A stretch of DNA of 20,548 nt, taken from the IMG/VR virus record IMGVR_UViG_2872698443_000003, one strand, 5' to 3'. Both the position numbers and the translations under genes were made by a program. This document shows, in pieces, positions 8,237 to 13,695 of this stretch (position 1 is the first letter of the stretch; each line of letters opens with the position of its first letter). The DNA comes from a virus. Taxonomy: Duplodnaviria > Heunggongvirae > Uroviricota > Caudoviricetes. The notes beneath the pieces were generated by a model. That model saw nothing but the letters and a program-made list of their open reading frames with translations. It was not told the origin of the DNA and ran no database searches.

Positions 8237-8896
8237 TTAACTAAATGTCTCTTCAGGCCACTGGCTGGCGATAACTTTCCCTACAACGGAACAGCTATCA
8301 TTGCATGGGATCATTGGATATTGCGGGTTTAGTGGCTGTAGGAACACCTGACCGCTATCCCTGATCAGTTTCTTGAAGGTAAACTCGTCACCACCAAGTC
8401 TGGCTATGCAGAAATCACCTGGCTCAACAGCCTGCTCAGGGTCAACGAGAATTAACATCCCGTCAGGAAAGCTTGGCTTGGATCCTGTTGGCGCGGTCAT
8501 GGAATTACCTTCAACTTCAAGCCAGAACGCACAATCACTGGCTTTTTTGGTTGTGCTGACCCATCTCTCCGCATCACCTTTGGTAAAGGTTCTAAGCTCA
8601 GGCGAGAACATCCCGGCCTGAACATGAGAAAAAACAGGGTACTCATATTGTTTTTTAACGGGGGCAGATGAGTATTCGCCAACAGGTGAAAATGTACCGT
8701 CGTGGTTGAATGAGACGTTATCAATACCAAGGTATTTAAACACCACACCAATCTCGTCAAGAGATGGATGACGAGATCCGCGCAACCAGTGACCAATTCC
8801 ACCCTGCGTCATACCAAGCTCTTCAGCTAACTTCTCTTGAGTTATGCCGAGCTCTTTCATTCTGGATCTAGCCAGTTCATACCATTTCATTTTCAT
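8237..8896 (-). CDS. cI: CI-type prophage repressor: lambda-identical C-terminal dimerisation/autocleavage domain, divergent N-terminal HTH domain
   Basis: From ...[39 protein letters not shown] onward the protein matches lambda CI as recalled; N-terminus ([37 protein letters not shown]) does not. Start is ambiguous (ATG 8896, 8890 or 8932; possibly leaderless). Confidence 0.85.
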
Positions 8897-8952
8897 ACCC
8901 TTATTATTACGCTCTGTACTAAAACCATCCATGCACAAGATGTATTTTTTGT

Positions 8953-9263: not shown

Positions 9264-9342
9264 ATCAAATTAAACCACACCTATGGTGTATGCATTTATT
9301 TGCATACCTTCAATCAATTGTTATCTAAGGAAATACTTACAT

Positions 9343-9636
9343 ATGGTTCGTGCAAACAAACGCAACGAGGCTCTAAGAATCGAGAGTGCGTTGCTTAACA
9401 AAATCGCAATGCTTGGAACTGAGAAGACAGCGGAAGCTGTGGGAGTTGATAAGTCGCAGATCAGCAGGTGGAAGAGGGATTGGATTCCAAAGTTCTCAAT
9501 GCTGCTTGCTGTTCTTGAATGGGGCGTCGTCGACGACGATATGGCTCGATTGGCACGACAAGTTGCTTCGATTCTCACCAATAAAAAACGCCCGGAGGCA
9601 ACCGAGCGTTCTGAACAAATCCAGATGGAATTCTGA
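9343..9636 (+). CDS. cII: Transcriptional activator CII (lambda-like), 97 aa
   Basis: [75 protein letters not shown]... matches lambda CII as recalled; ATG at 9343. Confidence 0.9.
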
Positions 9637-9668: not shown

Positions 9669-9815
9669 ATGACAAAACAACTCAGTCCTTACCAGGACAA
9701 AATTCACAAACACATACTACGTGATCGCTTCCTGTCCAGCTTCAAGCAGCCTGGTCGATTCCGGGCTGAGTTGGAAAAAGTGAAGCTGATGCAGAAGGAG
9801 AAAGGTCATGAGTAA
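9669..9815 (+). CDS. Small hypothetical protein, 48 aa, between cII and the replication initiator
   Basis: Manual translation ([48 protein letters not shown]); AGGAG 6 nt upstream; overlaps the next start by 8 nt. Confidence 0.4.
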
Positions 9816-10668
9816 TCTTGCAACCGTAACACATTTAAGGCCTTCACAACGGCCTGTGGAGCGTCGTGTGGCAGAAGTTGAAGATGGTTATACCCGTCTT
9901 GCAAATGCCCTGTATGAAGAGCTTATCGGCGCAGATTTAACGAAAAATCAGAGCAAGGTTGCCCACGCCATATGCCGTAAAACATACGGCTACGGTAAAA
10001 AGATGGATCGCATTTCTGATAGTCAGTTAGCTCAAATTACCAGGCTGCCAAGACAGAAGGTAAACAAGGCCAAGAATGAGCTTATCGCGATGAAGGTTAT
10101 CCTTCGCGAAGGCCAGCAAATCGGGCCTAACAAGAACATCGAAGAATGGCAAATCGAAGGGTGTCACTACTCTGGTGATAATGTCACTGCATTGGTGACA
10201 AAAAGTGTCACCAAAACGGTGACAGCGCTGTCACCAAAACAGGGACACACAAAAGAAACTATTACAAAAGAAAAAAGAAATAATAAAAACACTATGTCCG
10301 AAAGTGTTCGGACGGAGTGTGAAAAATCATCTGACCGTCACGAAGAAACCGACAAGGCATTCGAGGAAATATTCTGGTGTGCAGGCATGCGGAAAGCCGG
10401 GAAGAAAAACGCGGCTTCGGCATTCAGAACACAGTTCAGGGAATGGCGTAAAACTACCAGGGGTACGGCAAGCGAGTTTGCCACGATGCTGGCAGAAGAC
10501 ATCGCATGCAGGAATGGTAAGCAGTTCGGATTCGACAGGTTGTTACCATCGAGCTACCTGAACGGTCAACGCTGGAACGACGAGAAGCCAGAAACTATTC
10601 AACCACAATCCAAACCATCATCCGCAATCACCGTATCGAAAACTGGCTACGTGTTTTTCGACAGGTGA
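9808..10668 (+). CDS. Replication initiator / replisome organiser (O-like), 286 aa, with origin iterons inside the gene
   Basis: Track ORF at the O position after cII; internal GTGACA/TGTCACC iterons plus AT-rich tract. Confidence 0.6.
10160..10296 (+). repeat. Candidate replication origin: iterons (GGTGACA-N5-TGTCACC, GGTGACA-N4-TGTCACC plus half-sites) followed by an AT-rich tract at 10250-10296
   Basis: Seen directly: ...GGTGACAAAAAGTGTCACCAAAACGGTGACAGCGCTGTCACCAAAACAGGGACACACAAAAGAAACTATTACAAAAGAAAAAAGAAATAATAAAAAC. Confidence 0.6.
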
Positions 10669-10671
10669 ACC

Positions 10672-10779
10672 ATGAAATCAAAAATCAAATCGCTACTGGT
10701 CGCTGGTTATAACCACGGCTGGTTAAGTATTTCGTTTGTCGATTTCTGGTTTAAAAATCTCAATCTGAGGGAATCATGA
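10672..10779 (+). CDS. Micro-ORF, 35 aa, hydrophobic (MKSKIKSLLVAGYNHGWLSISFVDFWFKNLNLRES)
   Basis: AGGTGA upstream; stop overlaps the primase-helicase start (ATGA at 10776-10779). Confidence 0.3.
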   Translation: MKSKIKSLLVAGYNHGWLSISFVDFWFKNLNLRES

Positions 10780-12656
10780 CGCCAAGTGAACTTAGCGACC
10801 TGCTTTGGGCGCAGGTTGACAGGGTGGCTCCGCACCTGTTGCCAAACGGCAAGAAAGAGGGGCATGAGTGGGTTGCCGGTAACGTCAACGGTGACAAGGG
10901 AAACAGCCTTAAGGTCAACCTTAGCGGCAAGAAAAAATGGGCTGATTTCGCTGAGGGAGACGGCGGTGACATGCTTGATTTGTGGATGGCATGTCGTGGA
11001 ATTAACCTGCATCAGGCTATGCAGGAAGCGAAAGCCTTTCTCGGAATCAAGGATGACGATCACCATTTCGATGCCAAACGTGAGAAGAAATTCTCCAGAC
11101 CTGACCGCAAGAAAATCGCCCGCTACGTTACCAGAACAGAATCCCATCTTGAGTACCTGCAATCGCGTGGCATATCGCCAGAAGTCGTAAAGCGCTACGA
11201 GGTTGTCAGCGGCAAGGTGTGGAAGGGAGAACGAGAACTTGATGCACTGGTGCTTCCGTACAAACGCGATGGTGAGTTGTTGCAGGTCAAGCGAATCAGC
11301 ACTGAGCGCCCGGACGGGAAGAAAGTCATTATGGCAGAAGGTGATTGCGAACCTTGTCTGTTCGGATGGCAGGCTCTGGACGCTGGCGTGAGGGCGGTTG
11401 TGCTTTGCGAAGGCGAAATTGATTGTATGAGCTATGCGCAATACGGCATCTCGGCGTTATCCGTGCCGTTTGGTGGAGGGAAAGGCGCTAAGCAACAGTG
11501 GATTGAGTTTGAGTACCACAACCTCGACAGGTTTGAGGAAATATTCATCTCGATGGACGTTGATGATGTTGGTCGTGAAGCCGCAAGGGAAATCGCAAGC
11601 CGACTCGGTGAACATCGTTGCCGTCTTGTTACTCTGCCGTACAAAGACATCAACGAATGCCTGATGAACGGTGTTACCGAGGATGAAATCTGGCAGTACA
11701 TCGGCACGGCATCCTACTTCGATCCTGAAGAACTCTACAGTGCGCGAGAGTTTTACCAGGACACTATCAACGCTTTCTACGGCAAGCAGCAGTATCTGTT
11801 TAATCCACCGTGGGAATCTCTGGCAGATAAATTCCAGTTCCGTGAGGCAGAGTTGACGCTGGTCAATGGTGTGAACGGTCACGGAAAAACGGAGGTTGTC
11901 GGGCATATGGCACTTGAGGCAATGCGTCAGGGTGTGAAGACGTGCATCGCGTCACTTGAGCTGAAGCCTGGTATTCTCCTTAAGCGCCTTACCCGTCAGG
12001 CGACGTGCTGCAAGATGCCGCCAGTGCTGGAAATTGACTCTGCATTTAAATTTTATGACGAAAGACTTTGGGTGTTTGGTCTGACCGGAACGGCGAAAGC
12101 CGACAGGCTGATCGAAATATTCGACTACGCTCGCCGCCGATACGGGATCCAGTTATTCATCATCGACAGCCTGATGAAATGTGGCATAGGCGACGATGAC
12201 TATAACGGGCAGAAGGCGTTTGTTGACTCGATTTGCGACTTCAAAAACAAAACAAACTCCCACGTCATTCTCGTTACTCACTCGCGAAAAGGAGACAGCG
12301 AAGAAAAACCAACCGGGAAAATGGACGTAAAAGGCTCTGGAGCGATAACAGACCTGACAGACAACCTTTTCATCATCTGGCGTAACAAGGCTCGCGAGAG
12401 AGCGTTACAGAGAGTTCAGAGTGGTGAAAAGATGTCAGAGAAGGACGAACAGCTACTGGCATCTCCGGCATCTGTTTTGATGCTTGAAAAACAACGTAAC
12501 GGCGAAGGTTGGGAAGGTGGTGTCCCGTTGTTCCTTGACGAGCAATCGCACCAGTTCCTGCAACTTGAATCAGGATCGCCATATAGCTACATCGCCAATA
12601 TGCCGAAATCGGAATATGACGAGGCGTGGCGACAGGAAAACGTGACGGAGTATTAA
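10776..12656 (+). CDS. Bifunctional primase-helicase (Toprim domain plus DnaB/RecA-like helicase core), 626 aa
   Basis: Toprim-like VVLCEGEIDCMS and ISMDVDD; Walker A NGVNGHGKT; Walker B-like LFIIDSL; occupies the lambda P position. Confidence 0.7.
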   Translation: MTPSELSDLLWAQVDRVAPHLLPNGKKEGHEWVAGNVNGDKGNSLKVNLSGKKKWADFAEGDGGDMLDLWMACRGINLHQAMQEAKAFLGIKDDDHHFDAKREKKFSRPDRKKIARYVTRTESHLEYLQSRGISPEVVKRYEVVSGKVWKGERELDALVLPYKRDGELLQVKRISTERPDGKKVIMAEGDCEPCLFGWQALDAGVRAVVLCEGEIDCMSYAQYGISALSVPFGGGKGAKQQWIEFEYHNLDRFEEIFISMDVDDVGREAAREIASRLGEHRCRLVTLPYKDINECLMNGVTEDEIWQYIGTASYFDPEELYSAREFYQDTINAFYGKQQYLFNPPWESLADKFQFREAELTLVNGVNGHGKTEVVGHMALEAMRQGVKTCIASLELKPGILLKRLTRQATCCKMPPVLEIDSAFKFYDERLWVFGLTGTAKADRLIEIFDYARRRYGIQLFIIDSLMKCGIGDDDYNGQKAFVDSICDFKNKTNSHVILVTHSRKGDSEEKPTGKMDVKGSGAITDLTDNLFIIWRNKARERALQRVQSGEKMSEKDEQLLASPASVLMLEKQRNGEGWEGGVPLFLDEQSHQFLQLESGSPYSYIANMPKSEYDEAWRQENVTEY

Positions 12657-12956: not shown

Positions 12957-13313
12957 ATGGACGAATCAAGAAAGCAGTTTGAGGAATACGTTGCCAAAAA
13001 ATTGAGATTACCATTCGAGATGATAACCGAGGCAAGAAATGGTGATAGGTACTTCGCATTTTCAAGCATGGATATTCGTCACTCCTTAAATGAGTGGTGG
13101 ACTTTATGGCAGGCATCGCGAGCAGCTATTGAACTGGATATCGACTGGCCAGAATCGAATGACGACTTTTGGAAAGATGGTGAAGAAGGTGCTTATGCGA
13201 TGGGTTATGAGGATGGGCGTGACAAAACGGTAATTGCAGTAATGAAAGCTATCAGAGCCGCTGGAATTAAAGAGAAGAATTTCGATGAAGCAAACAATAT
13301 TCCTCCGAACTAA
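12957..13313 (+). CDS. Hypothetical acidic protein, 118 aa, at the position lambda uses for ren
   Basis: Track ORF; GAGGGT upstream. Confidence 0.5.
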   Translation: MDESRKQFEEYVAKKLRLPFEMITEARNGDRYFAFSSMDIRHSLNEWWTLWQASRAAIELDIDWPESNDDFWKDGEEGAYAMGYEDGRDKTVIAVMKAIRAAGIKEKNFDEANNIPPN

Positions 13314-13695
13314 GCAACAACAGCAAGCCGCAATCAACGCCATCCTCGCAACACCACTCGATAAAGACAAGCCAGTCACCATCCGCATTACTGACTACAA
13401 GCGCAACCTTGACCAGAACGCAAAATTTCACGCGATGCTGGCGGATATCGCACGTCAGGTTCAATGGTGCGATAAGTGGTTAAAACCAGAACAATGGAAG
13501 GTTTTGTTGATTAGCGGTCATGCAGTGGCAACAAAGCAGGAAGCTGATGTTTTACCCGGCCTTGAAGGCGAATACGTCAACATTCGCGAAAGCAGCGCGC
13601 AGATGAGCGTGAAGCGTATGGCAAGTCTTATCGAGTACACAACAGCATGGGCTATTGGTCAGGGTGTCAGATTTACCGACAGGAGGTACGAATGA
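13285..13695 (+). CDS. ninB: NinB (Orf) recombination mediator, 136 aa
   Basis: Track ORF; similar in length and in the central ...LDQN... region to lambda NinB as recalled. Confidence 0.7.

Follow-up and report, generated by a model that had tools for sequence, protein, structure and literature searches.

A putative ori-lambda-type replication origin with TGTCAC iterons inside the initiator gene of a lambdoid prophage

The locus raised the question of whether a group of repeated half-sites inside a phage coding sequence serves as an origin of DNA replication and, if so, what the repeat unit is and which protein reads it. The half-sites, TGTCAC and GTGACA, are densely clustered at 10162-10247 of a stretch of 20,548 nucleotides (IMG/VR record IMGVR_UViG_2872698443_000003; the whole stretch is called the window here), within the open reading frame of a replication initiator. 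In phage lambda, the O protein binds four repeats of roughly 20 bp located midway in gene O; P22 carries four other repeats in its gene 18, and the proteins of the O family vary along with the origin specificity (PMC8022706). In lambda, two O proteins bind each iteron, which has 18-bp hyphenated inverted symmetry, and next to the iterons lies an AT-rich region of 39 bp that unwinds readily (PMC6022878; PMC7466680).

From the comparisons described below it was concluded that vegetative replication of a lambdoid prophage (P22/HK620-like, mosaic) very probably starts from the region 10162-10320, an origin of the ori-lambda type placed midway in the initiator gene, where the linker is encoded. The original prediction had seen an ori-lambda-like arrangement with a different iteron sequence in this O-like gene. 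Homology and comparison with other phages supported that reading (through the alignment with lambda and ES18, the spacing, the AT tract and the palindrome to its right), but not the register in which the repeats had been read.

Genomic setting and the repeat unit

The window is a mosaic. The best matches were the P22/HK620-like coliphages vB_EcoP-720R6, N7, HK633, Sf101 and mEp043, with 96-98% identity across a third to half of the window length. The initiator gene sits in a lambdoid early-right operon of the order cI-cro-cII-O, and by megablast its DNA was 98-99% identical, over the full length, to the gene for 'replication protein O' of Sf101, mEp043, SEN22 and vB_EcoP-720R6. A scan of the window against Rfam at the gathering thresholds gave no match. 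The features are collected in Table 1.

Table 1. Features of the replication region and its surroundings (window coordinates)
Feature	Position	Strand	Codon phase	Remarks
cI-like repressor	8237-8938	minus		HTH_3 + Peptidase_S24
cII homologue	9283-9636
O-like replication initiator gene, 286 aa	9808-10668	plus		Pfam PF04492 Phage_rep_O, E = 1.1e-37, aa 20-114
N-terminal winged-helix domain, presumed iteron-binding part (coding sequence)	9808-10158	plus		AlphaFold2 model
Iteron 1, TGTCACTACTCTGGTGATA	10162-10180		0	aligns with lambda ITN1
Iteron 2, TGTCACTGCATTGGTGACA	10182-10200		2	starts 20 bp past iteron 1, as lambda ITN1 to ITN2
Iteron 3, TGTCACCAAAACGGTGACA	10206-10224		2	inverted repeat; starts 24 bp past iteron 2, as in lambda
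Iteron 4, TGTCACCAAAACAGGGACA	10229-10247		1	starts 23 bp past iteron 3, as in lambda
A-strand-biased AT-rich tract, presumed DNA-unwinding element	10248-10293			GC 0.22, low stability, near-identity to the lambda AT-rich region
Imperfect palindrome ACACTATGTCCGAA / TTCGGACGGAGTGT	10289-10320			14-nt arms, 86% complementary; abuts the AT tract on the right
ES18-type C-terminal domain, presumed primase-helicase contact (coding sequence)	10300-10668	plus		93-95% DNA identity to ES18, epsilon34, g341c
T7 gp4 / Twinkle-family primase-helicase gene, 626 aa	10776-12656	plus		Pfam Toprim_2, AAA_25, DnaB_C
NinB	13285-13695

The density of the half-sites was compared with chance. Six exact TGTCAC/GTGACA hexamers were counted inside 90 bp, with 16 in the entire 20.5-kb window, and in none of 2000 first-order Markov simulations of the window were more than three reached in a 90-bp stretch. 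The cluster thus far exceeds chance.

All elements that had been described from the letters were found in place, namely the two perfect palindromes GGTGACAAAAAGTGTCACC (10194-10212) and GGTGACAGCGCTGTCACC (10218-10235), additional half-sites (TGTCAC at 10162 and 10182, GGTGAT at 10174, AGGGACA at 10241) and an A-rich tract (38 of the 58 nt in 10236-10293 are A; GC 0.22 over 10250-10299), and all of them lie within the initiator coding sequence (Phage_rep_O, E = 1e-37). The repeat unit, GGTGACA-N4/5-TGTCACC, was off by half a unit, as it spans the right arm of one iteron and the left arm of the next. Judging by the alignments, the conserved unit is a 19-bp dyad, TGTCAC-N7-GTGACA, present in four copies, because both the 20/24/23-bp spacing and a three-way alignment of the window, lambda and ES18 place each such unit on a lambda iteron. 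Lambda ITN1-4 are annotated at 39034, 39054, 39078 and 39101, which gives the same start-to-start distances, each of about two helical turns. Iteron 3 is the best copy, a perfect 7-5-7 palindrome TGTCACC-AAAAC-GGTGACA. The right arms are degenerate in iteron 1 (GGTGATA) and iteron 4 (AGGGACA), and in the latter the arm merges into the conserved CACAAAAGA that begins the AT tract. The iterons begin at codon 119, downstream of the PF04492 match and between the N-terminal DNA-binding and the C-terminal domains; the same placement follows from aligning the protein to lambda O and ES18 gp59.

Recognition of the GGTGACA palindromes by the initiator, with three units and two orphan half-sites, has in its favor that both palindromes are perfect and that, in the window alone, they are better than iterons 1, 2 and 4 of the N7 register. 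However, the internal gap of these palindromes varies, whereas the centre of TGTCAC-N7-GTGACA was 7 bp long in 25 of 25 iterons from homologues of E. coli, Cronobacter, Yersinia, Serratia (where a fourth iteron is masked by Ns), Klebsiella and Proteus. It is the gaps between the iterons that vary, being 1, 5 and 4 bp in the window and -1, 1, 5, 5 and 4 bp in a six-iteron Klebsiella relative. Moreover, the array opens with TGTCAC and closes with a GTGACA-like arm (GGGACA), which leaves two half-sites unpaired in the GGTGACA register. The N7 register instead superimposes on the annotated lambda ITN1-4, with two O proteins per iteron (PMC6022878), and it is kept in the iteron types of P22, HK97, phi80, Hafnia and Erwinia. 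Reading by GGTGACA units was therefore considered very unlikely, and the four 19-bp dyads are used below.

The AT tract follows iteron 4 directly. By nearest-neighbour free energy, only two 40-mers of the 20.5-kb window are less stable than its segment 10255-10294, which thus ranks in the top 0.2%. The tract start, ACACAAAAGA, closes the array in every arm type except phi80, which has a looser version. The palindrome at the right edge of the tract is common to the window and ES18. At the equivalent position, lambda carries a palindrome with 12-nt arms (863-890 of the lambda locus L003, corresponding to lambda 39162-39189), and Proteus vB_BPM-V3, which has another C-terminal module, carries a different, GC-rich one. 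Both this palindrome and the fourth iteron had been overlooked in the original prediction.

Selection on the repeats and their pairing with the initiator

The repeats could also be a by-product of a repeated peptide, a VTK-rich linker, and have no role as DNA. The encoded linker does look repetitive. Nevertheless, the four copies are read in three codon phases (Table 1), iterons 1-4 being translated as CHYSGD, VTALVT, VTKTVT and LSPKQGH, and therefore it is the DNA that is repeated rather than the peptide. Furthermore, in-frame deletions in the iteron-coding part of lambda O leave the O protein active (PMC6022878), so the peptide itself is weakly constrained.

To assay conservation, the genes from E. 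coli, Cronobacter, Yersinia and Proteus, whose N-domains are 69-88% identical, were aligned by codon; the counts thus describe only four related sequences. Invariant nucleotides made up 43/48 in the iteron arms, 10/28 in the iteron centres and 177/339 in the N-domain. At third codon positions the invariant fractions were 14/16, 3/10 and 21/113, respectively (Fisher tests: arms versus N-domain, p = 1e-7; arms versus centres, p = 1e-6). Hence, synonymous positions of the arms are held constant to a degree not seen in the otherwise well-conserved N-domain, while the centres vary freely, and an origin of the repeats in the peptide was regarded as almost certainly wrong. The array switches between conserved and variable sequence every 6-7 bp, which rules out recent recombination as the source of the pattern.

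The N-terminal domain of the initiator is 53% identical to that of lambda O. An AlphaFold2 model of residues 1-117 was built from 24 aligned homologues, with a mean pLDDT of 70 and values of 86-94 over residues 70-110; residues 1-33 were unmodelled. The modelled helices 46-58, 71-78 and 82-94 and a beta hairpin at 98-107 correspond to a winged-helix layout, in which the recognition helix is predicted to be residues 82-94. The best fold matches in the PDB were all winged-helix regulators (CRP/FNR, MarR), although the matches were weak (E about 3e-3, TM 0.45-0.54). A sequence search of the PDB found no solved structure of an O protein.

The diversity of initiators was collected by tblastn against named phages and by a protein homologue search together with the encoding contigs; the latter yielded mostly truncated proteins, many of which stop within or just past the iteron region. 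In the named phages, at least seven arm types were found, each paired with its own version of the helix at residues 80-95 (Table 2). As far as the sequences and the model allow, the iteron arms co-vary with the predicted recognition helix across at least seven initiator types. Between TGTCAC and its nearest neighbours there are one or two differences in the arm bases and two to four in the helix residues. Of these neighbours, TGTCTC has the changes K84N and N90K relative to the window type, and TGTTAC or TGTATC has Q83S, V85A and K87I. Taken together, the codon phases, the invariance of third positions and the co-variation of arms and recognition helix point to selection on the DNA.

Table 2. 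Iteron arm types and the predicted recognition helices (helix 3) that occur with them
Helix 3	Iteron arms	Found in
window type	TGTCAC	window, Cronobacter, Yersinia enterocolitica, Serratia, Proteus vB_BPM-V3
LSRQNVNKAKKEL	TGTCTCC..GAGACA	Hafnia Pocitis76, E. coli CurroJimenez
ISRSKANIAKN(E/Q)L	TGTTACC..GGTAACA	Erwinia phiEt88, Midgardsormr38
ISRSKANIAKNEL	TGTATCC..GGAACA	Citrobacter Omnitron
LPVKRCNEAKLEL	TCCCTC..GAGGGA	lambda, ES18
xKCSxAK	TTTACC..GGTAAA	P22, PhiR26_1
HHTHVCxAK (HK97-type)	TTAGCC..GGCTAA	mEp213, Yersinia 21.09
LSDTHVSDALKSL	TTCCCG..CGGGAA	phi80

The TGTCAC iteron class was found across Escherichia/Shigella, Salmonella, Cronobacter, Yersinia, Serratia, Klebsiella and Proteus. 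We tentatively proposed, with the chances slightly below even, that the TGTCAC-N7-GTGACA iteron and its recognition helix constitute an undescribed replication-specificity class of lambdoid phages. If this is true, the natural series of arms and helices could reveal a base-by-residue recognition code for the O-family initiators, and it could predict cross-activation of, or interference between, the origins of co-resident prophages.

Module exchange and the helicase partner

The C-terminal half of the initiator has other relatives than the N-domain. It matched phrog_33384 and phrog_270 ('replication initiation protein'), and the 35-aa ORF of the replication module matched phrog_21848. The primase-helicase matched phrog_239 ('DNA primase/helicase', E = 2.5e-171) and the T7 gp4 structures 5ikn, 6n7i and 1q57 (E about 1e-23), and its protein was 94% identical to ES18 gp61. 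Thus, the window has the ES18-type gene order, in which the C-terminal domain is followed by a short ORF and then by a primase-helicase like gp61. A lambda-type O-P module was not: the gene downstream encodes a Toprim plus DnaB-like primase-helicase, and the C-terminal half of the initiator is unlike that of lambda O. The ES18-type module, an O homologue with a helicase, has been discussed for epsilon34 (PMC2629481). No biochemical study of such an O and primase-helicase module was found in the accessible literature.

The megablast matches of the initiator gene divided along the same line. The PhiR12 series matched in the N-terminal part only (gene positions 1-473), and ES18, epsilon34, g341c, several Stx2a phages and others matched in the C-terminal part only (from gene position 428 or 477). 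The junctions in the window lie at about 10235, in the centre of iteron 4, and at about 10280-10284, at the end of the AT tract; the homology to ES18 picks up again at the centre of iteron 4 and continues at 93-95% DNA identity over 10235-10668. The AT tract doubles as the recombination joint of the N- and C-terminal modules. In PhiR12_1, an N-domain and iterons of the window type are joined to a lambda-type C-terminus, which is followed by P and Ren.

The linkage was assayed further by scanning IMG/VR with the N-domain. Eighty loci were recovered, all about 100% identical and hence informative for linkage and not for conservation. An ES18-type C-terminus was followed by the primase-helicase in 73 of them, and in 4 more the locus ended after this C-terminus, before the next gene; the other 3 carried a lambda-type C-terminus and P. 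Mixed combinations of C-terminus and partner were absent among the 80 loci. More distant members of the TGTCAC class have other neighbours, namely a DnaB-type helicase in Proteus vB_BPM-V3 and a DnaC/IstB-like gene in a Serratia prophage. ES18 itself has a 94% identical primase-helicase and yet lambda-type TCCCTC iterons. These data indicate that the iterons travel with the N-domain, and the C-terminal domain travels with the helicase partner.

The same data bear on the possibility that the repeats are bound by the primase-helicase, or by another regulator, rather than by the O-like protein. The downstream gene is a primase-helicase fusion. The alpha protein of phage P4 recognizes the repeats of its own origin, and those repeats, TGTTCACC, slightly resemble TGTCACC. 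In ES18, however, the iterons are of the lambda type in spite of the 94% identity of gp61, and TGTCAC iterons occur without any primase-helicase, beside P (PhiR12_1 and the three IMG/VR loci), the DnaB-type helicase or the DnaC/IstB-like gene. They accompany the O N-domain in all cases. Since the iterons follow the N-domain and the C-terminus follows the partner, recognition of the repeats by the primase-helicase in the manner of P4 alpha was excluded, and binding by any protein other than the O-like initiator was judged extremely improbable.

A different possibility is that replication starts elsewhere, the array being an inactive relic or a mere recombination joint, or its palindromes being antisense terminators. 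The AT tract is indeed a mosaic junction, the gene is interrupted within iteron 3 in some prophages, and in a promoter and terminator scan the palindromes scored as terminator-like hairpins of the minus strand. The terminator reading was rejected, as such scores are a side effect of a dyad combined with A/T runs. As for a relic or a joint, the identical array is present in the viable phages Sf101, mEp043, SEN22 and vB_EcoP-720R6, the conservation of its arms between genera extends to synonymous sites, and the exact spacing of lambda is retained; a recombination joint, moreover, needs no four phased dyads that track a recognition helix. A start of replication elsewhere was accordingly considered a marginal prospect, and the array was taken as the probable origin.

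We proposed the following sequence of events at this origin. Dimers of the N-terminal winged-helix domain of the initiator would bind the four 19-bp dyad iterons, and the nucleoprotein complex so formed, equivalent to the O-some of lambda, would distort the DNA so that the AT tract opens. The C-terminal domain would then recruit the phage's own T7 gp4-like primase-helicase, replacing the P-DnaB route of lambda. We infer the binding of the iterons and the unwinding of the AT tract from the conservation data and the homology to lambda. The least secure step is the recruitment of the primase-helicase by the C-terminal domain, which is suggested by gene linkage. If the phage delivers its own primase-helicase in this way, host DnaB, DnaC and DnaG may therefore be dispensable.

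Occurrence and comparison with known origins

Among 5426 complete E. coli genomes, the 241-bp origin segment (10100-10340) was matched in 182, and at least 80% of its length is present in 173. An origin annotation was absent from the four examined records with this iteron class, those of Sf101, mEp043, vB_EcoP-720R6 and PhiR12_1, and the Sf101 paper makes no mention of an origin or iterons. In the searchable literature, to which older subscription papers and the ES18 paper did not belong, the exact iteron strings gave only unrelated primer matches, and no experiments on this allele were found.

The arrangement is textbook for lambdoid phages, and the iteron spelling is a new specificity variant. 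The practical value of the result lies mainly in annotation, as a probable origin is placed in the replication module of Sf101, mEp043, SEN22, vB_EcoP-720R6 and the PhiR12 series; in addition, the correct repeat unit is supplied for binding and replicon work. The two-domain design of O-type initiators is exemplified by the graded series of arms and helices and by a single origin-recognition module that re-pairs freely with helicase partners of four kinds; the origin of the window leaves the understanding of this design unchanged.

The closest known system is ori-lambda. The two origins occupy the same place in homologous PF04492 genes, and both have four 19-bp dyad iterons with identical 20/24/23-bp spacing. 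In the three-way alignment with ES18 they match column by column, so that the iterons coincide and so do the AT tracts. The centre of the best iteron copy, CAAAAC, is identical (lambda TCCCTC-AAAAC-GAGGGA), the AT tracts are nearly so, and a palindrome stands on the right in both. The differences concern the arms (TGTCAC/GTGACA in the window, TCCCTC/GAGGGA in lambda), the N-domain, which at 53% identity carries another predicted recognition helix, and the C-terminal half of the initiator, which is unrelated to that of lambda O and is accompanied by a primase-helicase where lambda has P.

The module of ES18 (gp59-gp61; also in epsilon34 and g341c) shares with the window the C-terminal half, the palindrome, the 35-aa ORF and the primase-helicase. 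In contrast, its N-domain and iterons are of the lambda type, whereas the window carries another specificity module, joined to the shared part within iteron 4 and the AT tract. In both ES18 gp59 (AY736146) and P22 gene 18, the GenBank records mark a rep_origin at the homologous position.

P22 gene 18, HK97/mEp213, phi80 and PhiR26_1 likewise have four or five 19-bp dyad repeats in the O homologue, followed by an AT tract. They differ from the window in having their own arms and recognition helices, with one arm sequence for each class. Their partners differ as well, being a DnaB-type helicase in the P22 and HK97 types and P in PhiR26_1 and phi80 (gene 14). The origins of the Stx phages 933W and P27, with six iterons, resemble the TGTCAC class in that the number of iterons varies within a specificity class, as it does in the Klebsiella relative with six TGTCAC iterons (PMC7466680). 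The Stx phages studied, however, have lambda-like iterons and O-P modules, and the window has four iterons.

Opening of the AT tract and exchange of partner genes

Among the O-type loci examined, the AT tract, the presumed unwinding element, was found to start with ACACAAAAGA(A/C)A in nearly every specificity class, including the lambda, P22, HK97-type, Hafnia and Erwinia classes as well as that of the window. The T-K residues that never vary in the linker were encoded by this motif, and the recombination joints between the modules coincided with it. The origin-recognition module, composed of the N-domain and the TGTCAC iterons, was adjoined by four kinds of partner gene: that of a T7 gp4-like primase-helicase in the window, lambda P in PhiR12_1, that of a DnaB-type helicase in Proteus vB_BPM-V3 and that of a DnaC/IstB-like ATPase in the Serratia prophage (Table).

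Table. Positions of the features and the loci compared
Feature	Locus	Position	Strand	Remark
Hairpin	window	9585-9612	minus	terminator-like, strong; 11 pairs then T run
48-aa ORF	window	9669-9815	+	8-nt overlap with initiator start
ACACAAAAGA(A/C)A	window	10245-10256		
ACACAAAAGA(A/C)A	L091, L092, L093, L094			
35-aa ORF	window	10672-10779	+	between initiator and primase-helicase
Partner gene	window	10776-12656		
Partner gene	L090			PhiR12_1
Partner gene	L084			Proteus vB_BPM-V3
Partner gene	L098			Serratia prophage
Six iterons	L100	1873-2000		Klebsiella prophage, protein P0023
Interrupted O allele	L103	2501-2962		protein P0001

Small ORFs flanking the initiator

The 48-aa ORF, similar to HK97 gp53 and ES18 gp58, was kept upstream of many O genes, and its homologues in related loci were DUF2740 proteins. 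The family is labeled as 'tail protein' in PHROGs, which looks like a misnomer because of the position of the ORF. The 35-aa ORF, the counterpart of ES18 gp60, matched phrog_21848 (E = 4e-26) and appears to be a conserved component of the ES18-type module.

Variation of the iterons and the cII hairpin

The O allele of P0001, a protein with 84 member sequences, was interrupted within iteron 3 at the junction ...TGTCACCAAAACGG|TAGACTGGCCCCCTGAATCTCCAGAC..., and the contig ended ~60 nt further on. The inserted end looks like that of an insertion sequence, possibly IS2. Therefore, many E. coli prophages may carry an inactivated initiator and origin.

The Klebsiella prophage contained six TGTCAC-N7-GTGACA iterons, compared with four in the window, two of them overlapping by one base, and the helix of its initiator was slightly altered (LPRQKVNVAKKELLSM). 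Origins with six iterons are likewise found in Stx phages.

The Rfam gathering scan across the window returned zero families. The hairpin was located at the 3' end of cII, the same place as the terminator of the oop antisense RNA of lambda and P22.
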